DNA from: Paracoccaceae bacterium
GTDB lineage: Bacteria > Pseudomonadota > Alphaproteobacteria > Rhodobacterales > Rhodobacteraceae
Assembly (NCBI GenBank): GCA_965217135.1
Contig: OZ244249.1
Coordinates: 3,496,167 to 3,560,166, forward strand
Direction: 5' to 3'
DNA length: 64,000 nucleotides
Part shown: piece after piece, positions 2,540 to 35,953 of the stretch
How positions within the stretch are numbered: position 1 is the stretch's first letter
Layout: each line of letters starts with the position of its first letter
The notes under the pieces: model-generated
What the model saw: only the letters and a program-made list of their open reading frames with translations
Told to the model about the DNA's origin: nothing
Databases searched by the model: none
Position numbers and translations under genes: made by a program

Positions 2540-2540
2540 A

Positions 2541-6947: not shown

Positions 6948-6950
6948 AGA

Positions 6951-18423: not shown

Positions 18424-19617
18424 TTGAAAAAGTCCGCAGTTCTGCTCACCGGGCATTTCCCGATGCAGCATCGCCGCGCCAGCCTGCCCTGGCTGTGGCA
18501 TCACCTGCAGGCGCAGGGGTGGCACGTGACCGTGGTCACGATCGGCTACAGTTGGCTCAGCCGGTTGCTGGGCGACCGGCGCATGGAGGGTGTTCAGCCC
18601 GTGCCGGATGTCGGCCTCACCGTGCACTCGCCACGGCTGTCGTCTGTTTTCGGCTTTGCGCCGATCCATCCGGTCTCGACACGATCGCCGACATTGGACG
18701 CGCTATTGGAACCGATTCATCACCTGCACCAGCGGTATTGGCGACCCCGTCTGGCACCGGTGCTAGCTCGCGCCGATCTGGTCGTGCTGGAAAGCGGGGC
18801 GCCGGTTCTGCTGGCTCCAGATGTACGCCATTACGCGCCAAACGCCACGCTGGTCTACAAGATCGCCGATGACATTCGCGCGCTGGGTCTGCCCCGGTTC
18901 GTAGTCGAGGCGGAAAAACGTCATGCCCACCTGTTTGACCGGATCAGCGTGGCCAGCCCCGTTTTGGCTGCCCGGTTCGCCGGGCTGGGCCCGGTTCGGA
19001 TGGACCCGTTGGGGGTCCCGCAGGACATTCTGGATGCCGCAGGGCCTGCCCCCGCTGGTCTGGGCAGTTCGGGCCGGATCAACGCGGTATGTGCGGGAAC
19101 GACCCTTCTGGACATGTCCAGTCTCGTGCGGATGGCACGTTTGCGGCCTGATTGGCGGTTGCATGTGATCGGGCGGATCCGGTCAAAGCCCCGCAATGCG
19201 CCAGACAATTTGCTGCTGCACGGCGAACGCCCCTATGCCGAAACCGCCGCCTGGGTGCGGTATGCGAATATCGGGCTGGCCCCCTACACCGACAGTCCGG
19301 CCGTTGCGTATCAGGCCACCCATTCCAACCGATTGCTGATGTACCGGTACTTCGGGCTGCCAGTCATCGGGCCGGAGCAGTTGCAAAAAGCCGGACATGC
19401 GGCGCTGATTGGCTACAGCCCCGGCGACGACCACAGCCTTGCCCGCGCAATGAAAACCGCGGAGAAAACACCGCGTCGCCCTGAACATCACACAATCCCT
19501 GATTGGTCCGAATTTGCGCGGCGTATCGCCTCCACCCCCCGTCGCACGCAGACAGACCCGGTTATGGCATCGGATCTGCAAGCCTTTGTCGACCTGTCCG
19601 AACAGATGGCGACATGA
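18424..19617 (+). CDS. GumK-like glycosyltransferase (putative GT70 glucuronosyltransferase)
   Basis: Length (397 aa) and several blocks resemble Xanthomonas GumK as I recall it: 'LVYKIADDI', 'IGLAPYTDSPAVAYQATHSNRLLMYRYFGLPVIGP', and an N-terminal 'LLTGHFP..HRRASL'. A TTG start is needed to include the N-terminal block. Confidence 0.5.
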   Translation: MKKSAVLLTGHFPMQHRRASLPWLWHHLQAQGWHVTVVTIGYSWLSRLLGDRRMEGVQPVPDVGLTVHSPRLSSVFGFAPIHPVSTRSPTLDALLEPIHHLHQRYWRPRLAPVLARADLVVLESGAPVLLAPDVRHYAPNATLVYKIADDIRALGLPRFVVEAEKRHAHLFDRISVASPVLAARFAGLGPVRMDPLGVPQDILDAAGPAPAGLGSSGRINAVCAGTTLLDMSSLVRMARLRPDWRLHVIGRIRSKPRNAPDNLLLHGERPYAETAAWVRYANIGLAPYTDSPAVAYQATHSNRLLMYRYFGLPVIGPEQLQKAGHAALIGYSPGDDHSLARAMKTAEKTPRRPEHHTIPDWSEFARRIASTPRRTQTDPVMASDLQAFVDLSEQMAT

Positions 19618-20768
19618 CGGTGCATATCAACGCCCGGTTCCTGACCCAGACCACGTCTGGCGTTCAGCGTTTCGCGCGCGGCTGGCTGGGCGCGCTAGAC
19701 GCAAGACTGGCCTCCGATCCGGCTCTGGCTGCTCGCCTCGGTCCCATGCGCGCCTGGGTTCCCGCGGGACGGCCCATCCAAGAGGACCCGGGCTGGTCTC
19801 AGATTACCCTGTCACCCTTGCCGGGGGCCAAAGGCCATATCTGGGAACAAACCGTGCTGGCCCGGCAGGTCGGGTCCGATCCGCTGCTCAGCCTTTGCGG
19901 GTCGGGCCCGCTGGCCTGCCGCAACCAGCTGCTGGTGCTGCACGACGCCAACATCTGGACCAACCCACACGCATTTTCCCCCGCCTATCGCTGGTTCCAC
20001 CGCCCCATGCGCGCCCAACTGGCACACAGGGTACGCAGCCTTGCCACCGTCAGTGCCTATTCCGCCCAAACCCTTGCTGCGCACCTGTGCGTGCCGACCG
20101 ACCGGTTTCACCTGTTGTCGAACAGCGCCGATCACATCACCGCTGTCACGCCCGACCCCGATGCACTGCACCGGCATGGCCTTACACATGGGCGCTTCAT
20201 GCTGACCGTCGGGAATATGACACCCAACAAGAACCTCGCGCGTATGGTACAAGCGGTGCATCGCTTGCCGGACGACGCACCGATACTGGCCGTGGCCGGG
20301 ACAGCCGCCACCGGCATGCGCAATGATACCCTTTCCGGATCGGACCGTGTTCGCCCACTGGGCCGTCTGGAAGACACCGATCTGGCCGCCCTATATCGCG
20401 GCGCCGCCGGGTTTGTCTGGCCTGCCTTGTCCGAAGGCTTCGGTATCCCCCCGCTGGAAGCGATGGCGATGGGCGTCCCGGTGCTGTCATCCGACCGAAC
20501 GGCCATACCCGAGGTGCTGGGTGACGCCCCACTCTATTTCGATCCGGAAAATGTGGAGGATATCACCCGCGCCCTGAAACGCCTCATCACGATGCCGGAG
20601 GCAGAGCGCGCTGCAATGGTCCGCAAGGGGCACACGCGCGCCAACTGCTATTCCTGGGCTGCAGGGGTTGACGCGCTGGTGGAAATCATTGCGGATCTTC
20701 AGACCACTGCCGCGATAACCGAACGCGCCAGGCAACAAATCCGACCATATGCCGTGCCCTCCAACTGA
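19614..20768 (+). CDS. Glycosyltransferase family 4 (GT-B, mannosyl/glucosyl-transferase-like)
   Basis: 'MTVHINARFLTQTTSGVQRFARG...' at the N-terminus. The C-terminal motif 'FVWPALSEGFGIPPLEAMAMGVPVLSSDRTAIPEVLGDA' is the E-x7-E type. The start has an ATGA overlap with the upstream gene. Confidence 0.85.
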   Translation: MTVHINARFLTQTTSGVQRFARGWLGALDARLASDPALAARLGPMRAWVPAGRPIQEDPGWSQITLSPLPGAKGHIWEQTVLARQVGSDPLLSLCGSGPLACRNQLLVLHDANIWTNPHAFSPAYRWFHRPMRAQLAHRVRSLATVSAYSAQTLAAHLCVPTDRFHLLSNSADHITAVTPDPDALHRHGLTHGRFMLTVGNMTPNKNLARMVQAVHRLPDDAPILAVAGTAATGMRNDTLSGSDRVRPLGRLEDTDLAALYRGAAGFVWPALSEGFGIPPLEAMAMGVPVLSSDRTAIPEVLGDAPLYFDPENVEDITRALKRLITMPEAERAAMVRKGHTRANCYSWAAGVDALVEIIADLQTTAAITERARQQIRPYAVPSN

Positions 20769-21771
20769 ATTTCGTGGGCCACTTCTGATCGTTGGCTGCC
20801 AGCGCTCTGGCACGACACTGCTCAGCACCATGCTGGCTGCCCATCGGGACATAGCCGTTGGGTACGAATGAGATTTCTTCGAAGCACTGGCCCCGCGATA
20901 CGGGCCTCTGCCGGATCTGCGCCCGATCTGGGGTCAATTCATTGACGACCTGCAGGCCGTAAACCGGTTTGCGTTCTGGGGGCTGGGGGCGTCGGACTTG
21001 CATGCCACCATATATCACCGCGCAACCCCGTTGCTCTACCCGGATGCCGTGCGCCTCATCGCGGAAACCTACCTGCAGAAGACCAAGCCGCAGGCCCGTA
21101 TCTTTGGGTTCAAGAACCCAAATTCGGTGGAGCGGCTGGATCAGTTCTTCGGCCTGTTTCCCAACGCTAGAGTTCTGCACATCACGCGGGACCCGCGCGC
21201 AGTGCTTGCGTCCCAACTGACCAAGGCGCGGTGCAGGGGTCACTCCAACAGCCCACTGGAAACCGTGCGCGTCGGGCGGCGTTTTGGCCGGGCGCAACGC
21301 GCGTTAGATAGGTTCAGCAACGATCCTCGCGTGTTGCATGTGTCGTACAGCGATCTGATCAACGAACCGGCACAACATTTACAGAAAATCTGTGGCTGGC
21401 TGGGTGTGGGGATGGACGTAGGGATGCTGGACTATCACAGAACCTCCGACACGCCCGAGGCATAGATTTGGCAGCATGCCCTGACCCGCAAGGCCCCGCG
21501 CCCGTCGCGCATAATGGCCTATCGGACGGTTTTGACCCCGGTGGAAATGGCCGCCATCGGATGGCTGTGCCGACGCAACTTGGTTCACGCATCGGACGGG
21601 TGGCGCGGACCAAAGGCGGGCAGGTTGGCGACAGCAGTCTATATTGCCACAGGCTGGGCCAGTTGGGCTGCCGCGGGTGCTGTGCGACGCAGCCGGAATT
21701 ATCTGGCACGGCGCGGGGTGCGACCAACAGACACCAGGCCCGGCATCACCAAGGCCAACACAACGGGATAG
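20749..21771 (+). pseudogene. Sulfotransferase-family gene interrupted by two in-frame stop codons (TGA 20869-20871, TAG 21463-21465)
   Basis: A single reading frame gives 'MPCPPTEFRGPLLIVGCQRSGTTLLSTMLAAHRDIAVGYE*DFFEALAPRYG...LHITRDPRAVLASQ...MLDYHRTSDTPEA*IWQHALTRKAPRPSRIMAYRTVLTPVEMAAIGWLCRRNLVHASDGW...'. The 5'-PSB loop (GCQRSGTT), the 3'-PB 'RDPR' motif and a typical C-terminal block all lie in one frame, separated only by the two stops. Confidence 0.75.
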
Positions 21772-23087
21772 GCGAAGAGTGTCAACACACCGGCCCAGTC
21801 TGCCTCCCAAAAAGCGAAAGTGCATATGGCCAGCGCTGCCAGGGTGTAAGGCAGGCAGATCGCCATTACGAACCGACCCGCCGGAAACCCATGGTGTCGG
21901 GCCAGATACACCAGCAGCAAAGCCAAAGCCCCATAGCTGGCCACCACATGGCCCAGCAGCATCGCCTCGGCCAAAACATGCCATGCAAACACGCTAAAAA
22001 CACTGGTGCCGATCAACGCATGGATCACGCGGCGCAGGGGCAAACGCGCCATCCCCGCCGCTGTCAGAACAGGCGTCAGCACCGCCAATGCCGCTGTATG
22101 AACAGCCAGCAGGCACAGGATGCGGGTCAGATCTACGCTCGCGCGGGCGGTGGCATCTCCCGCCATCATGCGCAAGGCCGGGTCAGCCAGCCAGATTGCA
22201 AGTGCAAAAGCGGGGGCGGATAGTACGCTGACCAGTCGGGCAGCGCGGAGTATGGCGTCAGGGTTCAGCGGGTCCCCTAGCCGGGCAAAAACCGGCAAGC
22301 CCAACGCGCGGTCAGGCGCAATGGCCAACGCGTCGATCATGCGAAAGACGCGCTGCGCCACCTGAAACCCACCAGCCGCGCCTAGGCCGAACGCAGCACC
22401 AATGGCAAGTTGCAACGCTGGCAACGCGGCCCCGGCCAACAAAGCCCGGGCGGAAATGGCGACGAATTGCGGGGTATGGCTGCGCAAAGCCTGCCAGCCC
22501 GTCCATGGCGTGGTGCGGTAGCGGGTCAGACCAAGACAAATCATCGCGTTTGTGACCGCAGAAGTGATAGCAAACCCGATCAAAGCCCATCCCCCTGCCC
22601 CCACCCATGCGAGCGTTATGGCAAGGCCTCCCGCCAAAAACTGTGCAACCACCGTGCGCAGGGCCAGAGCGCGGAACCGCAGGCCACGCTGCATCATCGC
22701 CTCGGGCACACAGGCCGCGCCATTGGCAACGGGAACAACACAAAGCGCCAGCAACATCGCCGCCAAAGGGCCATTGCCCAGCGCCCAAAGAACAATGGCT
22801 GCTACCCCCAGACCTGCCACGGTCAGGGCAGACACGATCATCGCCAGCCAGAAATGCCCACCATCCGTTGCAACCGACACCGGACGCGCGGCAACGGTGC
22901 TGTCGACGACTCCCGCCTTGTGCAGCGCTTGCGCCCAGCGCACTGGGGCATAGGCCAGCGCAAACACCCCGATCTGTTCCAGCGGCAAAAGTCGGGCCGC
23001 CATCAGGAAAACAACCGCATTGCCACCAACCCGCGCAACTTGCAGCACAAACGCCCACGCGGCAGGGGATGACAGCGCACCTGTCAT
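21699..23087 (-). CDS. Polysaccharide biosynthesis protein / MOP-superfamily flippase (Wzx/GumJ-like)
   Basis: 462 aa with about 12-14 predicted TM helices and an N-terminus typical of the Polysacc_synt family. The start overlaps the acyltransferase stop by 4 nt. Confidence 0.75.
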   Translation of the reverse strand: MTGALSSPAAWAFVLQVARVGGNAVVFLMAARLLPLEQIGVFALAYAPVRWAQALHKAGVVDSTVAARPVSVATDGGHFWLAMIVSALTVAGLGVAAIVLWALGNGPLAAMLLALCVVPVANGAACVPEAMMQRGLRFRALALRTVVAQFLAGGLAITLAWVGAGGWALIGFAITSAVTNAMICLGLTRYRTTPWTGWQALRSHTPQFVAISARALLAGAALPALQLAIGAAFGLGAAGGFQVAQRVFRMIDALAIAPDRALGLPVFARLGDPLNPDAILRAARLVSVLSAPAFALAIWLADPALRMMAGDATARASVDLTRILCLLAVHTAALAVLTPVLTAAGMARLPLRRVIHALIGTSVFSVFAWHVLAEAMLLGHVVASYGALALLLVYLARHHGFPAGRFVMAICLPYTLAALAICTFAFWEADWAGVLTLFAYPVVLALVMPGLVSVGRTPRRAR

Positions 23088-23854
23088 GCCGGGCGAACCC
23101 TTCGGGGCTGTGCGATCAAGAAAGGGCGTTCGATGGTTGCGAACACCAAAACCCCTACCCCAACTGATGCAAAGCAGGCCACCACAACAAAGCCCAGCGC
23201 GCCCATGCCAGTTGCTGGCAGGAGAGGGAGCAACCCGAGCGTCAGGCTGCGCAACACGAACCTGTGCGACAGGTAGAGCGCGTAGGAACTATCACCCAGC
23301 AGTTCCCCCAGCCGTGACAATGGCCCGGCGGTACTGGGCTGCGGCCAGAATAACGCCGCACCCGCCACCAGCGCCGTTGCTGGCAGACCTGCCCCCAGCC
23401 AGCGTGGGATGCCATCCATGTCGCCGAAGGCGCACAGTGCGCCCATCCCGCAGACACAAAGAACAAGGCTGATGGGCAGGCTTGGCGCGACGGCTTGCCC
23501 GCGCCTCAGGTGGAGCCACCCAAGGCAAACGCCAAAGCCGAATTCCAGAACGATCGGATTGCTCCAGAACCGCAGCGCAGGCGCGGTGATGCCAAATAAC
23601 GCGCCGATCAGCAACCATGCCATCAGCCCGCACAACAGCAGGATCAGCCCCAGTTTGCGCGGGACCAATAGCGACAAGGCGAAGAGGCCGTAAAAGAAGA
23701 CCTCAAAATTCAGGGTCCAGCCCAGCGACAGGATCGGCGCGATGCGACCGTCATACCGCTCGAGCGGGAAGAACAGGTAGGAACCCGCCACCTGCTGCCA
23801 ATCGAGCACCGTGTCATTGGCTGCACCCGGCACCACCAGCAGGATGCACAGCAT
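23084..23854 (-). CDS. Acyltransferase-3 family (O-acetyltransferase, GumF/G-like), apparently 5'-truncated
   Basis: Contains the family block 'ILSLGWTLNFEVFFYGLFAL' and several following TM helices. That block sits only about 45 aa from the first usable ATG (23854). The upstream in-frame sequence overlaps the epimerase 3' end and is non-membrane-like. The usual first about 100 aa, including the conserved His region, are missing. Confidence 0.6.
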   Translation of the reverse strand: MLCILLVVPGAANDTVLDWQQVAGSYLFFPLERYDGRIAPILSLGWTLNFEVFFYGLFALSLLVPRKLGLILLLCGLMAWLLIGALFGITAPALRFWSNPIVLEFGFGVCLGWLHLRRGQAVAPSLPISLVLCVCGMGALCAFGDMDGIPRWLGAGLPATALVAGAALFWPQPSTAGPLSRLGELLGDSSYALYLSHRFVLRSLTLGLLPLLPATGMGALGFVVVACFASVGVGVLVFATIERPFLIAQPRRVRPA

Positions 23855-23904
23855 CAGCGTGGTGGATGAGAGTGTAAGTCTATCCGCGCCCCCTTCCCCG
23901 CCTG

Positions 23905-24936
23905 TCAGGCCACCGCGTCGCCGGTTTGGGCGTTCAGGTAATAGGCGCGGTACCAGTCGATGAACCGTGCGACACCCGTGGCAACATCCGTATCCGGCTG
24001 GAACCCAGTCAGTTGTTTCAGCAGGGTCGCGTCCGCCCATGTGGCCGGGACATCGCCTGGCTGCATGGGCATCATTTTGCGATGCACCGGAACCCCCGCA
24101 GCCGTTTCCATCGCCGCGATGAAATCCAACAGCTCCACTGGATGCGAATTACCAATATTGACCACTCGGAACGGGGCAACTGGCGAAAGACTGTCGCCCT
24201 CGGCCACCTCACCCCTGGGTCGTTCCGGCACGGCATCCATCAGGCGGCTAATGGCTTCGACCAGGTCATCGATATAGGTGAAATCGCGGCGCATGTTGCC
24301 TTGGTTGTAGACGTCGATCGGCTCACCCGCGAAAATCGCGCGGGCGAATTTGATCGGGGCCATATCCGGACGGCCCCAGGGACCGTAGACAGTGAAAAAC
24401 CGGAACATGGTGACCGGCAGATCGAACAGGTGCGCGTAGGAATGCGCCATTGCTTCCGTCGCCTTTTTACTGGCGGCGTAAAACGACATCTGGTGATCGG
24501 CGCGGTCAGTTTCGCGGTAGGGCATATGCGTGTTGGCACCATAGGCAGAACTGGTCGAGGCCAGCAGCAGATGTCGGGGCGGAACTGCACGCGCGGCTTC
24601 AAGTATCTCGAAGGTGCCGTTGATATTGCCTTCGAGGTAAGACCTCGGATTTTCGATGGAATAACGCACACCCGCCTGCGCAGCGAGATGGATGACAGCC
24701 GTGGGTTTATGCGTCTCGAACAGTTCCCGCACCAAGCCAGGTGTTTCGACATGGCCAACTACTTCGACAAAGCCAGATTGCTGCTTTAAGCGGTCGATGC
24801 GGGCCTGTTTCAGCGCGACATCATAATAGTCGGTCATCGCATCCAGCCCAACAACACGCATGCCTTCGGCTAGCAGCCGTTCTGCCACGTGATACCCGAT
24901 GAACCCAGCAGAGCCGGTGACCAATACCGTTGCCAT
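23905..24936 (-). CDS. NAD-dependent epimerase, UDP-glucuronate 4-epimerase-like
   Basis: 'MATVLVTGSAGFIGYHVAERLLAEGMRVVGLDAMTDYYDVALKQARIDRL' (Rossmann GxxGxxG), plus 'YAASKKATE' (YxxxK). ATG 24936 is preceded by AAGGAGAA. The ORF-track start 25035 is not supported. Confidence 0.85.
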   Translation of the reverse strand: MATVLVTGSAGFIGYHVAERLLAEGMRVVGLDAMTDYYDVALKQARIDRLKQQSGFVEVVGHVETPGLVRELFETHKPTAVIHLAAQAGVRYSIENPRSYLEGNINGTFEILEAARAVPPRHLLLASTSSAYGANTHMPYRETDRADHQMSFYAASKKATEAMAHSYAHLFDLPVTMFRFFTVYGPWGRPDMAPIKFARAIFAGEPIDVYNQGNMRRDFTYIDDLVEAISRLMDAVPERPRGEVAEGDSLSPVAPFRVVNIGNSHPVELLDFIAAMETAAGVPVHRKMMPMQPGDVPATWADATLLKQLTGFQPDTDVATGVARFIDWYRAYYLNAQTGDAVA

Positions 24937-25260
24937 GGACGGTTCTCCTTTGCCGATACAGGGCGCTGCCCCAGTCGCGCGCCCGGAAGGGACCAGCCAC
25001 AGCTTTCCCGGTCTGCGCGCGCTTTTTCTCCTCATATCACAGCGTTGTCCCGAATTGGCAAATCGAAGGCCGGCCCGATCTAGGCGAGGCCTGCAAAGAG
25101 TTAATGGGCGGAAGGGTGAAGAAATGATTAACGCGTCAGGCGGCGTTTTAATCTACAGGCCCAAACACCCTGGTGCGCAACACCCCGCGCACGGTTGGGT
25201 GAGCCGATCTCAACCATCTGAACCGAGCTTGCCAGCCAACTGAAATGGAAAGGAAAACCC

Positions 25261-25530
25261 ATGCCCATCACCGATTTCTTCGAAAGCCTGACCTCCGGTC
25301 TGAACAGCCCTGCCATCGGAGGATTCGACATCACCCCGGATAACGGGACGGATCTGGCCACCATGCCGAGCGCCCTGATGGTCGGCGGGGCTGGTGATGT
25401 TGCCGTGATCTGCAAGGATGGCAGCTCCATCACTCTGCCTGCGCTTGCGCCCGGAGCGATCTATCCGGTGCGTGTTGCACGTGTTCTGGCCACGGGAACC
25501 ACGGCAACGGACATCAAGGGCCTGTACTGA
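25261..25530 (+). CDS. Small phage/GTA spike-base-like protein (RcGTA Rcc01079-like)
   Basis: The 89-aa protein is 'MPITDFFESLTSGLNSPAIGGFDITPDNGTDLATMPSALMVGGAGDVAVICKDGSSITLPALAPGAIYPVRVARVLATGTTATDIKGLY'. This pattern (ITPxD..DL....ALyVGgaGDv.v......v....v.aG...P.RV.rVlaTGTTAt.i..L) matches the family that I recall NCBI names 'spike base protein, RCAP_Rcc01079 family'. Confidence 0.6.
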   Translation: MPITDFFESLTSGLNSPAIGGFDITPDNGTDLATMPSALMVGGAGDVAVICKDGSSITLPALAPGAIYPVRVARVLATGTTATDIKGLY

Positions 25531-26885
25531 TGCTGGGGCTTTCGATGGGCATGATACCGCCAGCCCCGACAGAACGGCCCATGCCATTGCCCGCCGGGTT
25601 CAACTGGGACTCGGATCGCTTCCCGCTGGCGATCACCAAATCTGGTGCGGGATACCGATGGGATGTTGACCCACGATCTCTGGTCGATCCACTGATCTGG
25701 AGCGGCCCGGCCTACCACGTGGACGGAGACAATGGAGACGACGCCAATTCGGGACTTGGCGCAACAGACGGCGATTTCAGCGCGGCAAAGCGGACGATCT
25801 GGGCCGCATTTGTAGCGGGCAACGCAACGAGCACCCCCTATCGCGTGCTGGTCAAGGCGGGGCGTTTCACCAATTCCAGCTTCACCCGGAACGGGCAGGA
25901 GGAACCGACCCAGCCTCTGGCAATTCTGGGCTGGGGTGGCGCGATACATTACCGCACTGGCCCGTTCAGCCAGACTTGGGCCGATGCGGGCGGGACGTGG
26001 ACGACCTCGCAAAGCTCCGTCAAGCGCGTGTTGCGAACGGATGTGTTGACGGATCAGGGGCTATACAACGATCTCGCCCAAGTCGCAGACCCGGCCACCT
26101 GCGCGGCAACCTCCGATAGCTGGTGCAATGACAGCGGCACAATCCATGTGAACATCGGCGCCGCACCGGGCAACGAAGACATCGCCCTGATCCGGTCCTT
26201 CCACGGGGCACGCTTCATGTCGCATGTGCATGACCTATTCCTCGAAAACATCCATTGCGAAGGCGGCATTTCCGGCGCGCTGCATCTGGATCCTGCAGCG
26301 GACCGCAACGTCGTGGCGGTGGATTGTTCCTTCCGCTACTCCGCGCCCTCCAACACGGCCAGCCCGCTAGATGCGGTTCAGATGCGTCGCACCAACGGGC
26401 TGGTGGCGTTCTTTCGGTGCGATGCCTCTGGCGGTGCGGAAGATGGCTGGTCTTTCCACGAAGATGCACATGCCGGCATGCATGTGATCCTTCAGGACTG
26501 CAGCGGTTACGGGAATGGCGGTGTCTATGCAGCGGCAACGTCGTGCAATGCGGTCTCGGCCCATGACGCCACGCGACTGATCGACCTGTCCGGCGACTAT
26601 GGATGGTCCACCAACGGCACCGATATACACTGCGTGGAAAACTCCCACAGCTGGTTTGCCGGGACTCAGGCCACGGCCCGCGACAGCGATGGCACCTCGG
26701 TGGCGTTCAAATGTTCCAACGACAGCCAGATGTGGTTGCAGGACACCTGCGCCGACGCGGCGGGGGCGGCCGCGAACTATGCCCTGGAGGTGAACGGGGC
26801 CGGGGCGGTCGCCCATACAAGGAACCATGTGGCCATTGCTGGCGACACTGTCACCTCGGTTGGTGGCAGCGTGGTTTCGTTCTGA
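25530..26885 (+). CDS. Right-handed beta-helix protein, head-spike-fibre/receptor-binding-like (Rcc01080-like position)
   Basis: 451 aa. The start has a TGATG overlap with the spike-base gene. The sequence is rich in short repeats typical of parallel beta-helices ('HVNIGAAPGNEDIALIRS', 'LENIHCEGGISGALHL', 'VAVDCSFRYSA', 'VILQDCSGYGNGG'). Confidence 0.55.
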   Translation: MLGLSMGMIPPAPTERPMPLPAGFNWDSDRFPLAITKSGAGYRWDVDPRSLVDPLIWSGPAYHVDGDNGDDANSGLGATDGDFSAAKRTIWAAFVAGNATSTPYRVLVKAGRFTNSSFTRNGQEEPTQPLAILGWGGAIHYRTGPFSQTWADAGGTWTTSQSSVKRVLRTDVLTDQGLYNDLAQVADPATCAATSDSWCNDSGTIHVNIGAAPGNEDIALIRSFHGARFMSHVHDLFLENIHCEGGISGALHLDPAADRNVVAVDCSFRYSAPSNTASPLDAVQMRRTNGLVAFFRCDASGGAEDGWSFHEDAHAGMHVILQDCSGYGNGGVYAAATSCNAVSAHDATRLIDLSGDYGWSTNGTDIHCVENSHSWFAGTQATARDSDGTSVAFKCSNDSQMWLQDTCADAAGAAANYALEVNGAGAVAHTRNHVAIAGDTVTSVGGSVVSF

Positions 26886-26894
26886 GCGGACCGC

Positions 26895-27677
26895 TCAGGG
26901 CACCCAGTTGGCCTTGCGCTTGTCGAAGAAGGCGGCGATCCCTTCGGCGCCTTCTTCGCTGTCCCACCGCTTGCCCAGTTCGGTTGCGGTGTAATCCATA
27001 ACAGCATCGTCCACCTGCGGGCCAAGGAACTGCACCAGCTTCTTGGAAGCCGCCACAGCGCCCGGCGCACAGTTGAGGTACGGCACCACCTCAGCCTCAA
27101 CCACACTGGCCAGATCATCGGCCGGAACCGCGAGCGCCAGCAGGCCCAGCGCGATGGCTTCCTGCGCGTCGAATATGCGCGACGACATGAACACACGCCG
27201 CGCCCGGGCTTCGCCCATGCGAGCCACCACATAAGGTCCGATATTGGCCGGGATCAAACCCAGCCGGGTTTCGGTGAAGCCAAATTTTGCGGTCTCCACA
27301 CCGACCGCCACATCGCAGACCGACATCAGCCCCAGCCCACCCCCAAAGGCGTTACCCTGCACCGCACCGATCAATGGTTTCGGCAGCTGGTTCAATGCGT
27401 ACAGCATTGTGGCCAGCTTCATCGATTCCGCCACGCGGGCTTCGGGCTCAGCCTCCCGCTGCGCCTGCATCCACGCCAGATCACCCCCCGCGCAGAAACT
27501 TTTGCCCGCCCCCGTCAGGATCACCGCGCGCACGCTGTCATCCGCGCCCAGAGCGCCTGTGACATGCTCCAGATCGGCCAGCATCCGGGCCGACATGGCA
27601 TTGTGCTTTTCCGGGCGGTTCAGGGTCAGCGTGGCAATACCACGGGCGTCTTTTGCGAGCGTCAGTGTCTCGTACAT
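26895..27677 (-). CDS. Enoyl-CoA hydratase/isomerase (crotonase) family protein
   Basis: 'ATLTLNRPEKHNAMS...VILTGAGKSFCAGGDL...GNAFGGGLGL...FTETRLGLIP' are crotonase oxyanion-hole motifs. Confidence 0.9.
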   Translation of the reverse strand: MYETLTLAKDARGIATLTLNRPEKHNAMSARMLADLEHVTGALGADDSVRAVILTGAGKSFCAGGDLAWMQAQREAEPEARVAESMKLATMLYALNQLPKPLIGAVQGNAFGGGLGLMSVCDVAVGVETAKFGFTETRLGLIPANIGPYVVARMGEARARRVFMSSRIFDAQEAIALGLLALAVPADDLASVVEAEVVPYLNCAPGAVAASKKLVQFLGPQVDDAVMDYTATELGKRWDSEEGAEGIAAFFDKRKANWVP

Positions 27678-27850
27678 GGCCGGTCCTCCAAAATGGCTTG
27701 AAGCGGTGTAGCCCCGAACCGAAGGGGAGGAAAACCCCGAACCGGCACGGCACCAGCGCCTGGCCCCCGTTCGCAGCAGGAACCGGTCAATTCAGTTGCA
27801 ACTTGCGCCATGCCCCGGCAGCATTCCCACTGCAGGAGGAAACCAAGACC

Positions 27851-29512
27851 ATGCCAAAGCAAAAGAACATACTGTTCATCATGTTCGATCAGTTGCGGTG
27901 GGATTACCTGAGCTGCACCGGCCATCCACATCTGCACACACCGAACATCGACGCGCTGGCCGCAGATGGCGTACGGTTCAGCAGGACCTATGTGCAGGCC
28001 CCGGTCTGTGGGGCCAGCCGGATGAGCTTTTACACCGGGCGCTATGTGCATTCTCACGGGTCGACCTGGAACCGTGTGCCCCTGAAAGTCGGCGAACACA
28101 CCATGGGCGACCACCTGCGCGCCGCCGGCATGGATTGCTGGCTGATCGGCAAGACGCACATGGTCGCTGACGAAGAGGGCATGGAACGACTGGGCGTACC
28201 CCGTGACAGCATCATCGGGGTGCGGACCGAGCAATGCGGCTTCGACATCTGGGAACGCGACGATGGCCTGCGGCCCGAAGGCGCCGCCGGGCTCTATGAC
28301 GAACACGGCGCGGAAAAGTACAATGATTGGCTGCGCGCCAAGGGGTACGAGGGCGACAATCCCTGGCATGACTTTGCCAATTCGACCCGCGACGCGAACG
28401 GCAACGTGGACTCCGGATGGTTCCTGAAAAATGCCCGCCAACCAGCCCATATCGCCGAAGAAGACAGCGAAACGCCCTATATGACGACCCGCGCGATGGA
28501 TTTCATTTCCCAGGCCGGGGACACGCCATGGTGCTGCCACCTGAGCTATATCAAGCCGCACTGGCCCTATATTGCACCGCCGCCCTACAACGACATGTAT
28601 GGGCCGGATGATGTGATCCCGGTGGTGCGCTCCGATGCGGAATGGGATGACATGCACCCGGTCTATCGCGCCTATGCGGAAAATCCGGTCGGGCGCAGCT
28701 TTGCCCGCGATCACGTGCGTGATGAGGTGGTCCCCTCCTACATGGGGCTGATCAAGCAGTGCGACGATCAGATGGGGCGGCTCTTTGACTGGCTCAAGGA
28801 AAACGGGCATTGGGACAACACGATGATCGTGCTGACCTCAGACCATGGTGATTATCTGGGCGATCACTGGCTGGGCGAAAAAGACCTGTTTCACGACTGT
28901 TCCGTCAAGGTGCCTTTGATCATCCGCGATCCTTCGTCCAAGGCGGACAGCACACGCGGTACGGTCTGTGACGCGCTGGTCGAGGCGATCGACCTGGCCC
29001 CAACATTTCTGGATGTGGCAGGCGGCGCGCCGCGTCCGCATATACTGGAAGGCCGGTCGCTGATGCCATGGCTGCAGGGCGACAACGTCGAGGACTGGCG
29101 GACCTACGCGATTTGCGAAAGCGAATATGGCATACATCCCGGCGTCAAAAGCTTCGCGCTGGATGTGGAGGATCCGCGCCAGTTCATGGTCTGCACGGAC
29201 CGGTGGAAATTTGTCCATGCGGAAGGGTTCCGACCCATGCTGTTCGATCTCGAGGCCGACCCGGATGAATTGAACGATCTTGGCAGTGATCCGGCCCATG
29301 CTGAGATCCGAACCGAGCTGTTCGGCTATCTCAACGACTGGGCCCGCCGCCTGAGCCAGCGCATAACGATGAGCCCAGAACAGGTAGATGTGGAGCGGGA
29401 TCGGTCCAGCCTGAAAGGTGTGCTGATCGGGGCGTGGGATGAAAACGACGCGCCGGAGTTCATGACGAAAGGCTACATGCCCAAACCTGCCCCGAAAGGA
29501 CCAACCGACTAG
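27851..29512 (+). CDS. Sulfatase-family hydrolase (arylsulfatase / phosphonate-monoester-hydrolase-like)
   Basis: 'NILFIMFDQLRWDYL...PVCGASRMSFYTGRY' fits the (C/S)-x-(P/A)-x-R formylglycine motif, with Ala in place of the usual Pro (28007-28021). 'LTSDHGD' occurs later. ATG 27851 is preceded by GGAGGAAACC. No FGE gene is visible in the window. Confidence 0.85.
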   Translation: MPKQKNILFIMFDQLRWDYLSCTGHPHLHTPNIDALAADGVRFSRTYVQAPVCGASRMSFYTGRYVHSHGSTWNRVPLKVGEHTMGDHLRAAGMDCWLIGKTHMVADEEGMERLGVPRDSIIGVRTEQCGFDIWERDDGLRPEGAAGLYDEHGAEKYNDWLRAKGYEGDNPWHDFANSTRDANGNVDSGWFLKNARQPAHIAEEDSETPYMTTRAMDFISQAGDTPWCCHLSYIKPHWPYIAPPPYNDMYGPDDVIPVVRSDAEWDDMHPVYRAYAENPVGRSFARDHVRDEVVPSYMGLIKQCDDQMGRLFDWLKENGHWDNTMIVLTSDHGDYLGDHWLGEKDLFHDCSVKVPLIIRDPSSKADSTRGTVCDALVEAIDLAPTFLDVAGGAPRPHILEGRSLMPWLQGDNVEDWRTYAICESEYGIHPGVKSFALDVEDPRQFMVCTDRWKFVHAEGFRPMLFDLEADPDELNDLGSDPAHAEIRTELFGYLNDWARRLSQRITMSPEQVDVERDRSSLKGVLIGAWDENDAPEFMTKGYMPKPAPKGPTD

Positions 29513-31010: not shown

Positions 31011-33295
31011 TCAGGCGTCGATGCGCGTGGTCACGATCACCTCGCCTTCGACCGGTTCGGGCCAGATCAGCTGGATCTGGTCCTTGTTGGACCCTTGCTG
31101 GGTCTGGACATAAGGCATGGCATAGACAGCCTGACCTGCCGCGTTCTTGATTTTTCCGTTGGCCACAACCGCGTCCACGTTCCGCGCCCAGGCTTCAAAC
31201 GGCAGTTCACCGCCGGTGCCGATCTGCCAGGTCTGGGTGGGCGAGTTTTCCGAATGTTCCACGCGCAGTGGGTTCATCGGCTGGGAGACAACCGAGTGGT
31301 AGGAATTGCCCGTGAAGTTCACATGTTTGGAGCGGCTGTAATCTAGATCGGCAAAGCTGGTGTCGACCCGTTCGGCCCTGTCGATATTGCCATTGATCGA
31401 CCGGAACTTGTTGCCCGTCACCATGACCCCGTTCAGGAAATGCCCAGCGCCGTGCGGTTTGATCACGATATAGCTGAACCACGGCGCCACATCGCCGGAC
31501 AGGAACACGTTATCGGTGATGGAAAACGCGCTGAAGGAAAAGCCGCTGGAAAACGTCGGTTCGCTGTCTTGTTCATTGGTCCATTCGATAAAGCAGTTGT
31601 CCACGTAATTGCCGGTGAAGTTGGTGCTGGTATAGGTCGCGGCAAAGACAATCCCCGCGGTGCGCACGCCATCGGTGATGCCATCCCCCTGGAAGAAATG
31701 GTGCCGATCACGACTCTGTTCGACCCGGCCAGCAGCGCGAAATGTTTGAACTTGGTCGCCCGGCAATTGCGCAGCTTCACGTCATTGGCATTGGCGTTTA
31801 TCGCGATGCTGACCCGGTCGGGCACATCGACGGAATCTTCGCTGGACAGGAACTGACACCGGTCGATCAGCATGCCCTGACAGCCGCCACCGATAGAGGT
31901 GAGACCGCGATCCTTGGGGCGGGAGATGAAACAGTCGGCCAGGGTGAAAGTCAGGCCACTCGGGGCCAGCAGAATGCCACTGCATTCCCCGTTGCACTGA
32001 AATTCGATGTCGTTGAACGCGAATTTCGAGAGCTTGGAGAACCCGGTGAAGTCCAGCAGATATTGAAACCGCTTGAAGGTGAAATTCTGTGTGCCAGCGG
32101 CATCGTAGAGCGATGCGTTCAGGGTGATTTCCTGCGTCGCATCGTTTTTCTCGCGGACATAAATTTCGCGCCCGACCCCGTTGCCTTCGACCAGAGCACC
32201 GACTGGGATATTGGAGATATTGGTGACGTTGGTGAGCTTACGGTTGTCACTGGGGTCATATGTAGCCTGTGAGGTCACCGTGACAGTGTCCCATGCCGGG
32301 CCATTCTTGGCCTCAAGCTGACCATTGCGGATCACCCGGCGGGTGGCATAGCTGGTCTTGTCGGGGACCGTGGCCTGCATGTCGATGGGTCCGGTCACCT
32401 GAACCTTGCGCCCGCCCAGATCCAGCGATTCATGATCGACATTATTCAGCAGGGCCTGAAATGCCTTTTTGAACGCCAGCTCCTCATTACCGAAAGCGTC
32501 GATATAGCTGGGCAGGTCATAGCTTTTCTGAAGCAGCAGCATCTTTTCGGTGGGCATGGTCACTGTGCCCTGAAACTCTACCCGGTTTTTCAGGATGACG
32601 TCGTCATCCAGAAAATAGGTGCCCTCAGACACCAGCACAGTCCGGCCATCGGCGGCATCATCGGCGTCGGCAAAAGCCGCGCTGTCATCGGTCACACCAT
32701 CGCCGATGGCGCCATAATCGCGCACATCGACGATGTTCATCATCGTGCGAAGGAAGGCGCTGGTGATATCCACGATCTCAATATCATCGATGCGGACCAC
32801 CCCGCCATTCGACCCGTTCAGGTCCAGACCGAAATGACCATAGAGCGCCTCGGTTCCCCAGACCATGTCCACACCGGTGCGTTGCCCGGAGCCGACAATC
32901 GCGGTGACCTCGACCACCTCACCATAGCCGGTCAGCGTAACCGACGGCCCGGTTTCCACGACCCCGCCTATATGGCTGCCGCCCGTCCCACCGGCCCAGG
33001 CGGAAATGCGCACCGACGGCAGGTTGCCGCTGACCGCTTTAACCCGCGCCCGGATCTGCAGGTAGCAGCCGGGCAACAACGACGTTTCCCCCATGTATCG
33101 GAGCTTTTGCGTGCTGTCGGTTTTCTGCAGTTCCAGGCATCCGCCGAAATCCTGGTCTGCGGGCACAAAGGCCGCGTTCACCGCTCCGTCATAAGTATCC
33201 GACCCGGGCGTTCCGTTGCCGCTGGACCAGACATCCAGACCATTCGCAAACGGCGGCGGCGTGAGCAGCACGCCATCAGTGATTGCCTTGTTCAT
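31011..33295 (-). pseudogene. CBM-like plus pectate-lyase-fold (tailspike / polysaccharide-depolymerase-like) gene split by a 1-nt frameshift near 31700-31705
   Basis: The upstream ORF carries 'VDVRDYGAIGDGVTDDSAAFADA', the hallmark of the pectate-lyase-3/tailspike N-cap. It reads sensibly up to '...FALLAGSNRVVIG' and then turns into P/S/A/R-rich nonsense. The overlapping ORF in another frame becomes protein-like from 'HHFFQGDGITDGVRTAGIVF...'. Restoring one base in 'atcggc-a-ccatttc' would give 'VVIGNHFFQGDG'. ATG 33295 is the preferred start. Confidence 0.7.
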
Positions 33296-34247: not shown

Positions 34248-35828
34248 TCAGGTGGAAACGAGCTCTCCCGCCAGAGCCTTGTCGATCAGCGCAACGGTTT
34301 CTTCGACACCATACAACGCGATGAAGCCACCAAAGCGCGGGCCATGGGATGCGCCCAGCAGAACCTCATACAGAGCCGTGAACCATTGCCGTAGCGGATC
34401 AAACCGTTCGCGGCCAACCGCGTAGACGATGGATTGCAGCGCTTCGTCATCAACAGGACCGTCATAACCAGTCAGCTCGGCCCGCAGTGCCTCCAGTGCC
34501 TCACGCTCCATATCCGAGGGCACGCGGAACTTTCGGGCCGGTTTGACGAAGTCGTTGTAGTAGCTGACTGCAAAGGCGGCGGCTTGGTCCATATCCGGAT
34601 TGTTTTCCGGCGTGGCATCAGGCGCGTAACGCTGGATGAAGCCCCAGAGCTTGTGCTTGTCCTCAGCCCCCGAAACCGAGGCCAGGTTCAACAACATCGC
34701 AAACGGCACCACCATATGTGACGTGGGCACATTATGGCCATGGATGTGGAAGACCGGGTTGTTCAGCCGCCCCTTGTCATCCTGGTCCGCATAAGCGCGC
34801 AGTTGCTGATGGTATTCGTCCATTGCCTTGGGGATCACGTCGAAGAACAGTCGCTTGGCCGTCTTTGGTTTCTGATACATGAAATAACTAAGGCTTTCGG
34901 TCGATGCATAGCTCAGCCATTCATCAATCGAAATGCCGTTGCCAGACGATTTCGAAATTTTCTGCCCCTGATCGTCGAGGAACAATTCGTAAGAGAAATG
35001 GTTGGGTGGACGGGCGCCCAGCGTCCGGCAGATGGCATCGTAGATTTTTTCGTTGGTGGCGTGTTCCTTGCCATACATCTCAAAATCCACACCCAGCGCG
35101 GCCCAACGCGCGCCGAAATCCGGCTTCCATTGCAGTTTCACATTCCCGCCAGTGACAGGCAGCGTCCATTCGCGGCCCTCGGGATCATCGAAGGTTACCG
35201 TACCGTCGCGCCCATCGACATGCTTCATTGGGACATAAAGAACGCGGCCCGTTTCAGGGTGGATCGGCAGAAAGATTGAATAGGTCTGCTGCCGTTCTTC
35301 GCGCAGGCTTTTCAGCATGATTGCCATAAGATCATCATACCGCTCGGCACAGCGCAGCAGGATTTCGTCAAACTGGCCGGACTGGTAGAACAACTTGGCC
35401 GAGTAGAAATCATATTCGAACCCGAAGGTGTCCAGAAACCGCTGCAACATCGCGTTGTTATGATCGCCAAAACTGTCGTGCGTTCCAAAAGGATCGGGCA
35501 CAGATGTGAGAGGTTTTTGCAGATGCTCGGCCAGTTCTTCCTGGTTCGGCACATTGCCTGGCACCTTGCGCATTCCGTCCAGATCGTCGGAAAAACAGAT
35601 CAGCTTGGTCGGTATGTCCGAGATCACTTCGAACGCCCGGCGGATCATGGTGGTGCGCAGGACCTCGCCAAAGGTGCCGATATGCGGCAGGCCGGAGGGC
35701 CCATAGCCGGTTTCAAACAGAACATACCCCTTTTCTGGCGGGGCCTTTTCATACCGTTTGAGCAGCCGCCGCGCCTCTTCAAAAGGCCAGGCCTTCGATG
35801 TCATAGCGGTATCGCGCAGGTTGCTCAT
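34248..35828 (-). CDS. lysK: Lysine--tRNA ligase, class I
   Basis: HIGH-type '[12 protein letters not shown]' and KMSKS-type 'KISKSSGNG', with the overall class-I LysRS layout common in alphaproteobacteria. The start is ATG 35828 (alternative 35804). Confidence 0.9.
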
Positions 35829-35953
35829 GGTATGTCCGTTACTTTTGCGGGATGCAGCCACGCCCGATGCGCGGCAGTCCGACACTCCCTATTGTGCAGG
35901 CCGCAGCCCGTCAATATTCTGCACCGCAACATGAGAAGCGAAAGGACACTTCC

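Follow-up and report, generated by a model that had tools for sequence, protein, structure and literature searches.

The two overlapping genes found at positions 25261 to 26885 (+) of the 64-kb stretch of a marine Rhodobacteraceae chromosome analyzed in this study (referred to as the window) encode a spike base of 89 amino acids (aa) and a predicted beta-helix protein of 451 aa, which probably constitute the head-spike module of a gene transfer agent (GTA). In this module, a swapped and probably depolymerizing fiber would be mounted on a conserved base and matched to the polysaccharide of the neighboring gene locus.

In Rhodobacter capsulatus, the head spike of the GTA (i.e., RcGTA) is composed of the base GhsA/Rcc01079 and the fiber GhsB/Rcc01080 (Westbye 2016; Hynes 2016; Bardy 2020; PDB 6tb9). 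The earlier note on this DNA had described this background accurately. The gene pair described here shares with the RcGTA head spike a homologous base, the order of co-directional and overlapping genes with the base gene first, an alternating pattern at the N-terminus of the fiber, and a location outside of any phage-like gene cluster and directly beside capsule/EPS genes. It differs from the RcGTA head spike in the fiber itself, as Rcc01080 is a 325-aa, two-domain, lectin-like protein to which the 451-aa beta-helix has no sequence similarity. The two fibers also differ in distribution. Rcc01080 is reported to have been found only in R. capsulatus, with no homologue outside of it, while the fiber described here is widespread across the roseobacter genera, where the pair is sometimes plasmid-borne.

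The spike base and the organization of the gene pair

The base gene (25261..25530, +) encodes a protein that ends in VRVARVLATGTTATDIKGLY and is preceded by a purine-rich ribosome-binding site, GGAAAGGAAAA (25247..25257, +), recognized by direct reading of the sequence. The block GAAAGGAAAACCCATG, which holds this site, is identical in the closest genome, L001. In the comparison with the Rcc01079-family HMM proposed in the earlier note, the NCBIfam equivalog NF048002 (i.e., spike base protein, RCAP_Rcc01079 family) scored 103.8 bits, with the cutoff at 28, and residues 5–85 matched the head spike base Rcc01079 of the RcGTA structure (PDB 6tb9_E3) with an E-value of 2.5e-13. Matches were also found to PHROG 12296 (E 8.9e-23) and to PDB 8cjz, which is named Spike Base Protein (E 9.7e-4); no publication was traced for PDB 8cjz, which is not named in the Jorvik paper. 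Judged by these matches, the 89-aa protein is clearly a spike base of the Rcc01079 family. Its identity is ~47% to the R. capsulatus SP108 orthologue of Rcc01079 and 44% to the base of phage RcapNL. As its similarity to these two proteins is about the same, homology alone cannot separate use by a GTA from use by a phage.

The TGA stop codon of the base gene (25528–25530) and the ATG start codon of the fiber gene (25530–25532) share one base, which confirms the coupling of the 89-aa and 451-aa open reading frames by TGATG (25528–25532) that had been noted earlier; the corresponding overlap in R. capsulatus SP108 is ATGA. A programmed frameshift, which was formerly proposed for rcc01079/80, is not needed to join the two genes, given their simple 1-base overlap and the presence of separate proteins in the RcGTA structure. 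Metagenomes contain near-identical copies of the pair (99 and 98% identity), and dN/dS values relative to L001 are 0.17 for the base gene and 0.12 for the fiber gene, which demonstrates purifying selection on both. Together with more than 120 homologues of the fiber, all of nearly constant length (~447 aa), the metagenome copies and low dN/dS values indicate that these genes are real and selected.

Upstream of the base gene, a conserved and putatively functional intergenic block, GGTGAAGAAATGATTAACGC (25115..25134, +), contains a TTAAC sequence that resembles a CtrA half-site (25128–25132). The block differs from that of L001 by one base, and the intergenic DNA around it has diverged. CtrA half-sites have been published for the late loci of RcGTA, and in 15 regions upstream of such pairs GTTAAC was observed 5 times, compared to about 0.4–0.66 expected. 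TTAAC is absent upstream of the pair in R. capsulatus SP108. Counts of 8-mers (one mismatch allowed) in the same 15 regions did not exceed those of shuffled controls, so that no shared promoter motif emerged beyond the short TTAAC site. No sigma-70 consensus was found upstream of the pair, and no Rfam family matched positions 24850–25350. At the other end of the pair, the palindrome TGAGCGGACCGCTCA (26883..26897), which has 7-bp arms and a 1-nt loop, holds the stop codons of both the fiber gene (+) and a convergent enoyl-CoA hydratase gene (-). It lacks a T-run and was therefore rejected as a canonical terminator; apart from this short palindrome, no notable inverted repeats were found.

The anchoring peptide and the beta-helix body of the fiber

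The fiber gene (25530..26885, +) begins with codons for an N-terminal plug and a short linker (residues 1–19, 25530..25586, +). In RcGTA, residues 2–10 of Rcc01080 (IALGLGLGL) form a star that fills five pockets of the base pentamer, with one fiber per pentamer (Bardy 2020; PDB 6tb9). The corresponding residues of the fiber described here are LGLSMGMIP (25533–25559), which differ from the five leucine-based alternations of the RcGTA plug in having four clean alternations followed by I9 and P10. Among 117 fiber homologues, 115 have hydrophobic residues at three or more of positions 2, 4, 6, and 8; likewise, small residues occupy two or more of positions 3, 5, and 7 in 115 of the 117, and proline is found at position 10 in 70. 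At the level of sequence, the anchoring-peptide pattern of Rcc01080 is thus kept by this fiber.

The same pattern also heads unrelated proteins of 144–884 aa whose genes follow base genes, both in phage RcapNL and in many alphaproteobacteria. The locus described here suggests that the interface of base and plug is a general adaptor that takes different receptor-binding bodies. Base genes were likewise expected beside P0254 and P0222, two distant homologues of the beta-helix whose N-termini resemble the plug, but an HMM of the base alignment detected no base gene near either of them. In addition, the 85-aa product gp24 of Gordonia phage Rofo, which is encoded just upstream of a homologous hydrolase, was found not to be a homologue of the base.

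Residues 20–451 and the stop codon (25587..26885, +) correspond to the body of the fiber, a right-handed parallel beta-helix that is a probable polysaccharide-binding or depolymerizing module. The boundary at residue ~20, marked by the motif PxGFxWD, is common to phage homologues with other N-termini. The AlphaFold2 model of the 451-aa protein has a mean pLDDT of 93.7 and a pTM of 0.92, with residues ~100–451 almost all in short strands, which bears out the earlier description of this protein as a beta-helix. PHROG 16653, annotated as hydrolase, matched residues 15–435 on profile positions 25–468 of 482 (E 3.6e-37). No Pfam or NCBIfam family matched the fiber. A phmmer search of the PDB, whose library includes the full-length 325-aa Rcc01080, returned no hit at E ≤ 1, and a BLASTP comparison with a fragment of the R. 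capsulatus SP108 orthologue of Rcc01080 gave an E-value of 2.1. By these comparisons, the body is not homologous to Rcc01080, and only the N-terminal anchoring pattern is common to the two fibers. The earlier proposal that the pair is the equivalent of the RcGTA attachment module is supported by the base (i.e., NF048002) and by the plug pattern, with a correction for the fiber body. Literature searches on roseobacter head-spike fibers found no description of the 451-aa protein.

Right-handed parallel beta-helices are also characteristic of phage tailspikes and depolymerases (e.g., those of P22 and of Klebsiella phages; PHROG 16653, hydrolase; PHROG 32409, tail fiber). With phage homologues, the fiber shares both the membership of PHROG 16653 and a conserved set of Asp, His, and Asn residues. 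Viral contigs also encode this body, at 52–54% identity, as part of a 636-aa tail protein. There, it follows an N-terminal domain of ~210 aa, and the gene has the tape-measure gene on one side and RcGTA-like baseplate genes on the other. Phage tailspikes are attached to the baseplate by their N-terminal domains. The fiber described here belongs to a cellular locus, and its N-terminal part consists of only 19 residues with the head-spike plug and without an attachment domain of the tailspike type; it would be attached to the capsid vertex by a 10-residue peptide. Given one chain per five-fold base in the RcGTA structure, the fiber is expected to be a monomer, in contrast to the trimeric tailspikes.

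Foldseek matched the model to glycoside hydrolase BT_1002, a K1 capsule lyase, and depolymerase S2-4 with probabilities of 0.97–1.0, and depolymerases of Klebsiella phages were also matched. The model and these matches support the earlier suggestion of a possible depolymerase. Other beta-helix enzymes among the matches were AlgG-type epimerases and lyases. The fiber could instead serve the same GTA head-spike role as a non-catalytic, lectin-like binder of polysaccharide, as proposed for Rcc01080. The description of RcGTA head spikes as reversible capsule binders is consistent with that alternative, as are the lack of a match to any curated enzyme family in Pfam or NCBIfam and the low TM-scores of the model to solved enzymes (0.2–0.44); against viral models, TM-scores reached 0.85. 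However, D305, H310, N329, and H345 are invariant in all 12 distant homologues compared, and D387 is conserved in 11 of them. The four invariant residues span proteins from roseobacters to phages of Gordonia, Arthrobacter, Bacillus, and Pseudoalteromonas. The surface glycans of these groups are bound to differ, so that shared chemistry fits the invariance of the residues better than shared binding. These residues suggest that the body is an enzyme, and phage annotators have named its homologues hydrolases. Moreover, TspA (Rcc02623), a detachable, biofilm-degrading tailspike of RcGTA, is a beta-helix that functions as an Asp/His-dependent depolymerase with Asp505, His533, and Asp566 (Bardy et al., bioRxiv 2026). 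We therefore regard the binding-only role as somewhat unlikely, albeit credible.

TspA is a 763-aa beta-helix trimer that is held loosely on the baseplate and has a beta-sandwich N-terminal domain of ~180 aa, followed by a pectate-lyase-like cap (Bardy et al., bioRxiv 2026). Like TspA, the fiber described here is a predicted beta-helix of a carbohydrate-active type, is encoded away from the structural cluster, and may use Asp/His chemistry. It differs from the baseplate-bound TspA in its length of 451 aa, its head-spike plug, and its position after a base gene, and the sequences of the two proteins showed no relationship.

The polysaccharide locus, its linkage to the pair, and the genomic context

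As the earlier note had stated, the pair lies beside a polysaccharide locus, which spans 18424..25035. A gene for an NAD-dependent sugar-nucleotide epimerase (23905..25035, -; Pfam Epimerase, E 3.8e-52; likely true start near 24936) diverges from the base gene and starts about 225–324 nt upstream of it; the L001 counterpart is 81% identical and occupies the same position. The capsule locus that adjoins rcc01080 in R. capsulatus also has an epimerase-type gene, lspL1. Next to the epimerase gene is a gene for an acyltransferase-3-type membrane protein (23084..24040, -), identified by tblastn as a homologue of an L001 gene that carries PF01757 (Acyl_transf_3), as the window protein has no Pfam hit of its own. 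The locus also includes genes for a Wzx-like polysaccharide flippase (Polysacc_synt_3; 21699..23087, -; PF13440, E 2.3e-27), a GT4 glycosyltransferase (19503..20768, +; Pfam Glycos_transf_1, E 2e-24), and a GumK-like glucuronosyltransferase (18424..19617, +; Pfam GumK_N, E 3.7e-46). A sulfotransferase pseudogene (20746..21771, +) is interrupted by an in-frame TGA at 20869 and a TAG at 21463; in a tblastn search with the L001 sulfotransferase, 48% identity was found over 376 columns in one frame through the two stops. NCBIfam gave only sub-threshold matches for the polysaccharide genes.

The linkage extends well beyond the window. In all 14 other roseobacter genomes found with the same fiber, homologues of the GumK, flippase, acyltransferase, or GT4 genes are located within 10 kb of it, in two gene arrangements with unrelated outer flanks. 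The pair has a constant length and 57–79% identity in these genomes, which represent many genera. The flippase gene is linked to it in 13 of them, the acyltransferase-3-type gene adjoins it in 13 (42–52% identity), other genomes likewise show linkage of the GT4 gene, and in most other genera the fiber gene is directly adjoined by the GumK-like gene. It thus appears that the spike is inherited jointly with the sugar that is its likely target. The earlier note had placed the ligand and receptor genes side by side; such an adjacency, with co-regulation, was already published for rcc01079-80 and the capsule genes of R. capsulatus. What is added here is its extension, with a different fiber, across the roseobacter genera.

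On its other side, the pair is followed at a distance of 4 kb by a frameshifted homologue of tspA (about 31014..33295, -). A 1-nt deletion interrupts it at codon 532 (about 31703–31712), and the two resulting reading frames are 86 and 82% identical to the L001 counterpart, which is intact and encodes 761 aa. A Pfam Pect-lyase cap covers residues 189–250, the intact L001 orthologue has D505, H533, and D566 at the residue numbers published for the cleft and catalytic residues of TspA, and a class I lysS gene is located nearby (34248..35885), as published for TspA. Judged by its cap, residue numbering, length, and lysS neighbor, this gene is a member of the TspA family. The earlier statement that no other phage genes are adjacent is thus correct in that no prophage is present, and requires qualification for this GTA-associated gene. 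A GTA structural cluster in this genome is indirectly supported by this TspA homologue with its lysS neighbor and by the published presence of such a cluster in 21 of 21 Rhodobacterales genomes. The enrichment of TTAAC-type half-sites upstream also favors a link of the pair to a GTA.

A second alternative is that the pair is a phage-derived head-decoration cassette, which serves a temperate or infecting phage or persists as an inert prophage remnant, and is only passively linked to the polysaccharide locus. Base homologues do occur in true phages (RcapNL, Paracoccus phage Pben1, DSS3P8, and others), R. capsulatus has prophage paralogues of both spike genes, the base is about equally similar to Rcc01079 and to the RcapNL base, and the beta-helix body is present in phage tail proteins. 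In RcapNL, the base homologue gp29 is followed by an overlapping gene for the 144-aa gp30, which starts with MGLGLGIGLGL and has the plug pattern found here. The RcapNL pair, however, lies within a complete temperate phage genome, by tail and integrase genes, and its short fiber has an unrelated body. In the window, no phage gene, integrase, or tRNA gene was found within 25 kb on either side of the pair, whose metabolic or housekeeping flanks encode ABC transporters, an enoyl-CoA hydratase, a sulfatase, LysS, and ValS, and no GC anomaly was detected. On these grounds of gene content, composition, and lack of tRNA genes, a prophage was rejected for the window. Also opposing a phage cassette are the purifying selection on the pair and its constancy in 14 other genomes, where it keeps both its length and its place at the polysaccharide locus, unlike strain-variable prophages. 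Furthermore, a base needs a matching capsid, and that of the GTA is the only phage-like capsid conserved across Rhodobacterales, as 21 of 21 Rhodobacterales genomes carry an RcGTA-like structural cluster. The GTA structural cluster, gafA, and ctrA are not visible within the window, so that the assignment of the pair to a GTA is indirect. On balance, a phage-derived cassette is improbable.

Least credible, at long odds, is a capsid-free pair domesticated for the cell's own polysaccharide metabolism, in which the beta-helix would be a lyase, hydrolase, or epimerase that controls chain length with a small partner: strict linkage to a biosynthesis locus, the AlgG-type epimerases and lyases among the fold matches, distant family members with signal peptides that look like secreted cellular enzymes, and the higher conservation of the fiber (57–66% identity) than of its biosynthesis neighbors (31–51%) are compatible with it, but the fiber described here has no signal peptide and bears the conserved plug pattern of a capsid spike, its partner matches, at the equivalog level, a capsid spike base whose structure has been determined, and a capsid-free role would explain the conservation of neither plug nor base.

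Proposed role and wider implications

In the GTA head-spike module that we propose, each capsid penton in the GTA particle of the cell would carry five copies of the 89-aa jellyroll base, which would hold one 451-aa fiber by its first ten residues. Each of the five base subunits would offer hydrophobic pockets to the side chains of L2, L4, M6, and M8, followed by I9/P10, and, after the short linker, residues 20–451 would project as a monomeric right-handed beta-helix. This body would recognize, and probably cleave or modify, the acidic surface polysaccharide of the adjacent locus, which likely contains uronic acid, is acylated, and may be sulfated in relatives. The beta-helix would thereby provide the particle with its first, reversible hold on recipients and possibly with a path through capsule or biofilm. 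Compared to R. capsulatus, the base and plug would have been kept, while the receptor-binding body would have been exchanged for a cassette that is also found in roseophage tail proteins. With the spike and polysaccharide genes tightly linked, a ligand would stay matched to its receptor as the block passes from chromosome to plasmid or back.

Frequent gene transfer among marine Rhodobacterales is attributed to GTAs. Rcc01080 is the only characterized head-spike fiber, and the locus described here provides a candidate fiber for much of the Roseobacter group. As this fiber is genetically tied to a specific polysaccharide locus, recipient specificity becomes directly testable. Should the body prove catalytic, TspA would be joined by a second GTA-borne depolymerase, one that is mounted on the capsid.

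A broader reading can be offered only tentatively, namely that the pair and its locus form a portable cassette of matched ligand and receptor, carried by chromosomes and RepB/RepABC-type plasmids, that defines gene-exchange groups, places a depolymerase on the head, and trades its body with phages. If so, the cassette would set which cells a roseobacter GTA can reach, like a kin-recognition (i.e., greenbeard-type) module, and the capsid vertices would bear an active depolymerase, with eleven copies of the enzyme on the head rather than on the tail. The enzyme body would also be traded with roseophage baseplate proteins, so that GTAs and phages would compete and co-evolve on one glycan. The pair and the locus are found together on roseobacter plasmids as well, such as pMaD9.

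A coupled gene pair for a spike base and a fibre

The pair consists of an 89-aa base ORF (25261..25530, + strand), whose product ends in ...VRVARVLATGTTATDIKGLY, and a 451-aa fibre ORF (25530..26885, + strand); the TGA stop of the former and the ATG start of the latter have one base in common (TGATG), as the earlier note had read them. A purine-rich ribosome-binding site, read from the sequence, lies upstream of the base gene (25247-25257). Metagenome copies of both proteins are 98-99% identical, the more than 120 fibre homologues are nearly all of 444-452 aa and, relative to the closest relative's locus (L001; 79-80% amino-acid identity), dN/dS is 0.17 for the base and 0.12 for the fibre. Both are real genes under selection, and both are intact in the window, in contrast to its damaged sulfotransferase and TspA homologue. 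A perfect palindrome at 26883..26897 (TGAGCGGACCGCTCA), which is not followed by a T-run, holds two stop codons, one ending the fibre gene and the other, on the opposite strand, ending the convergent enoyl-CoA hydratase gene.

The 89-aa protein scored 103.8 bits (cutoff 28) with the NCBIfam equivalog model NF048002 (spike base protein, RCAP_Rcc01079 family), as the earlier note had anticipated, and residues 5-85 matched PDB chain 6tb9_E3 (Head spike base Rcc01079) at E 2.5e-13; PHROG 12296 was matched at E 8.9e-23. Judged by these matches, it is a spike base, of a family already named by NCBI. In the gene transfer agent of Rhodobacter capsulatus (RcGTA), the eleven non-portal capsid pentons each carry a pentamer of the Rcc01079 jellyroll (PMC7296036). 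The base is equally similar to those of phage RcapNL (44% identity) and R. capsulatus (47%). In Roseobacter sp. GAI101 (L014, 9950..10270), an orphan base gene (57% identical) is not followed by a fibre gene and has Bac_transf-type sugar transferases on both sides, then a metallophosphoesterase and a large lipoprotein-like gene; the context is still one of polysaccharide genes, and the fibre has apparently been lost.

Each RcGTA head spike has a single fibre chain, and the N-terminal peptide of this fibre, Rcc01080, takes the shape of a five-point star, with its (iso)leucines filling hydrophobic pockets on all five subunits of the base (PMC7296036). The fibre of the window begins with M-L-G-L-S-M-G-M-I-P. 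Among 117 full-length homologues, 115 have L/I/V/M/F at three or more of positions 2, 4, 6 and 8, 115 have small residues at two or more of positions 3, 5 and 7, and 70 have Pro at position 10; some start with MIALGVGL..., which is nearly the sequence of Rcc01080. By this pattern, the fibre retains an Rcc01080-type anchoring peptide, or plug. Further analyses revealed the same pattern at the head of proteins that are otherwise unrelated, range from 144 to 884 aa and are encoded after base genes; they come from many alphaproteobacteria, one Chthonomonadales MAG and phage RcapNL (gp30, MGLGLGIGLGL). By contrast, of the 41 beta-helix family members with a short N-terminus that fall outside the roseobacter cluster, only 1 has the strict form. 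Because the plug is conserved and heads unrelated bodies, the base-plus-plug interface looks like a general adaptor with an exchangeable body.

Outside the Rhodobacterales, two Kaistia genomes (L082/L083, 10249..11613) pair a base homologue (42% identity) with a fibre that belongs to the same beta-helix family (28-30%) and has a plug-like start, MPGLGLAVG; the roseobacter polysaccharide genes have no homologues near this pair. Two distant beta-helix homologues (32-35% identity), P0254 (L099, 4001..5359) and P0222 (L100, 1308..2681), also have plug-like starts, MALGLGLGLALGL and MRLGLGLDL, with no base homologue detectable in their available flanks. The former locus is phage-like in look, with an AAA_25 gene and a Phage_gp49_66 gene.

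The fibre body and its relatives

The fibre is annotated as hypothetical only, literature searches found no publication describing it, and it had no match in Pfam, NCBIfam or PDB sequence searches. The PDB search was a genuine test for kinship to Rcc01080, since the library contains Rcc01080 at its full 325 aa, and a search with the R. capsulatus SP108 fibre fragment (L048) retrieved it at E 5.8e-91; with this fragment, the fibre of the window gave a BLASTP E of 2.1. The pair, which the earlier note had equated with rcc01079/rcc01080, is homologous to it in the base, but not in the fibre, which is a beta-helix and not an Rcc01080 relative. The parallel beta-helix that had been proposed was recovered by AlphaFold2 (54 homologues; mean pLDDT 93.7, <50 only at residues 1-4; pTM 0.92), with a predicted right-handed fold. 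Among solved structures, the best matches were glycoside hydrolase BT_1002, the K1 capsule lyase of Klebsiella and depolymerases of Klebsiella phages; their probabilities were high but their TM-scores low. Predicted viral proteins matched the model with TM up to 0.85. The fibre also matched PHROG 16653 ("hydrolase", E 3.6e-37) and PHROG 32409 ("tail fiber", E 2.5e-17).

At about residue 20, the motif P-x-G-[FL]-x-W-D marks the start of the conserved body; it is common to homologues in Gordonia, Arthrobacter, Bacillus and Pseudoalteromonas phages (22-29% identity). A search of 1.84 billion representative proteins returned 464 body relatives, in which the N-terminal pieces ahead of the body range from 15 to about 700 residues, some with signal peptides. 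In seven IMG/VR viral contigs, a body with 52-54% identity to residues 20-451 makes up the C-terminal two-thirds of a 636-aa protein, whose unrelated N-terminal part of about 210 aa matched no Pfam, NCBIfam or PHROG family. In one of them, a 45-kb contig (L094, IMGVR_UViG_3300048586_000914, 5371..7281; the other six are L088-L093), the gene lies downstream of the major head gene, between a tape-measure gene and genes for tail assembly, a minor tail protein and a large tail protein, and neither a base gene nor polysaccharide genes are found nearby. This position among tail genes indicates that the tails of phages, probably roseophages, carry this body too. D305, H310, N329 and H345 are invariant in 12 of 12 sequences, from roseobacters to distant phages, and D387 is present in 11. 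As the surface glycans of the hosts differ, this invariance would fit catalysis better than binding alone, and the fibre body is probably enzymatic.

Linkage to a polysaccharide locus

The polysaccharide locus that had been noted beside the pair lies upstream at 18424..25035. Nearest to the pair is a sugar-nucleotide epimerase divergent from the base gene, followed by an acyltransferase-3, a Polysacc_synt_3 flippase, a sulfotransferase pseudogene, a GT4 and a GumK-like glucuronosyltransferase, beyond which are a racemase and ABC transporters. The GumK-type glucuronosyltransferase, epimerase, acyltransferase and sulfotransferase genes suggest that the polysaccharide has uronic acid and carries acyl and sulfate groups. 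The sulfotransferase gene (20746..21771, +; 48% identity to L001 over 376 columns) is otherwise well conserved and has in-frame stops, TGA at 20869 and TAG at 21463, where L001 has Cys and Glu, so this strain's form may be unsulfated. Two genes past the fibre, in an identical position in L001, is a sulfatase gene (27653..29512, +; Pfam Sulfatase and SGSH_C, PehA/arylsulfatase-like, below NCBIfam cutoffs) with a possible role in sulfated-polysaccharide turnover.

Downstream of the fibre are the convergent enoyl-CoA hydratase, sulfatase, UPF0261, TspA-like and class I lysS genes, and later valS and central-metabolism genes. With these cellular flanks, no tRNA gene and no compositional break in the window, the pair is not in a prophage within the window; a prophage setting had been named by the earlier note as fatal to its reading. 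Its remark that no other phage genes are adjacent is correct as to a prophage, but a homologue of the GTA-associated tailspike TspA (Rcc02623) lies about 4 kb downstream. At window positions 1..3000, G+C is 0.50-0.53, compared to 0.57-0.65 elsewhere.

A scan with the base alignment, one genome per species, returned 80 loci. Every locus with this fibre had GumK, flippase, acyltransferase or GT4 homologues within 10 kb (14 distinct genomes, including Ruegeria, Sulfitobacter, Tateyamaria, Marinovum, Roseovarius, Ascidiaceihabitans and Rubellimicrobium; the sequence of one locus is cut off just after GumK). Base homologues below about 57% identity had different downstream genes and lacked this polysaccharide locus. 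Fibre gene and GumK face each other tail-to-tail in most genera, with an outer flank that varies (dynamin/NfeD, ureidoglycolate lyase, type VI secretion cluster); in the lineage of the window, the pair is at the opposite end of the locus. Thus, the linkage has been kept through rearrangement. The fibre (57-66% identity) is better conserved than the biosynthesis genes (31-51%). Pair and locus are also found together on Sulfitobacter, Roseivivax and Marinovum plasmids of 82-306 kb (hits H53-H59, L098); in pMaD9 of Marinovum algicola DG898 (L098), the pair (4484..6096) directly follows repB-I/parAB, ahead of the polysaccharide genes. Such side-by-side placement was already known in R. capsulatus, where rcc01079-80 are immediately upstream of, and co-regulated with, the capsule genes rcc01081-86, which make the head-spike receptor.

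A proposed relation to a gene transfer agent

Given the base homology, plug pattern and polysaccharide linkage, the attachment-module reading of the earlier note is supported with corrections, and we consider it fairly probable that the pair is a GTA head-spike module. Like the RcGTA head spikes, it has the same adaptor of base plus plug and the same genomic logic; unlike Rcc01080, its fibre has a different body, probably an enzyme, with wide conservation across the Roseobacter group and with relatives on phage tails. Five base copies would occupy each capsid penton, and one fibre would be inserted in the base pentamer by residues 2-10, with residues 11-19 as a flexible linker. The body, as a monomeric beta-helix, would bind, and probably cut or modify, the acidic polysaccharide from the neighbouring locus. 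By analogy with RcGTA head spikes, which were shown to make the first, reversible contact with recipient cells (PMC7296036), this contact would be a first, reversible hold; by analogy with TspA, for which passage through biofilm/capsule was shown, passage through capsule or biofilm might follow.

Membership in a GTA is the weakest step of this explanation, and no GTA structural gene is present in the 64-kb window. It is suggested by the need of the base for a capsid, the position of the pair outside a prophage and the conservation of the RcGTA-like cluster, the phage-like element that Rhodobacterales have kept (21 of 21 genomes). The nearby TspA homologue (31014..33295, -) lends support to this link, TspA being a detachable biofilm-degrading tailspike reported to be conserved in Rhodobacterales GTA producers, neighbouring lysS. 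The intact 761-aa orthologue of L001 has D505, H533 and D566 exactly at the published cleft/catalytic positions. In the window, a 1-nt deletion at codon 532 (about 31703-31712; GGCACCATTTC versus GGCAACCACTTC in L001), directly preceding the residue equivalent to catalytic His533, splits the gene into two reading frames; either this is a true pseudogene, or the assembly is in error here.

The late promoters of RcGTA were reported to have CtrA half-sites. As a further point for the GTA link, a TTAAC motif is present in an intergenic block conserved between the window and L001, and GTTAAC occurred 5 times in 15 upstream regions, compared to 0.4-0.66 expected, mostly 48-70 nt ahead of the start codon. 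Several points speak against the link: no wider shared motif was found in these 15 regions, the upstream region of R. capsulatus SP108 has no TTAAC, and the base resembles that of phage RcapNL as much as that of R. capsulatus. Two blocks, 25031..25068 (TCATATCACAGCGTTGTCCCGAATTGGCAAATCGAA, two mismatches) and 25173..25185 (GTGCGCAACACCC, identical), are kept relative to L001 amid diverged intergenic DNA and may serve the epimerase and base genes, which are divergent, as operator or promoter elements.
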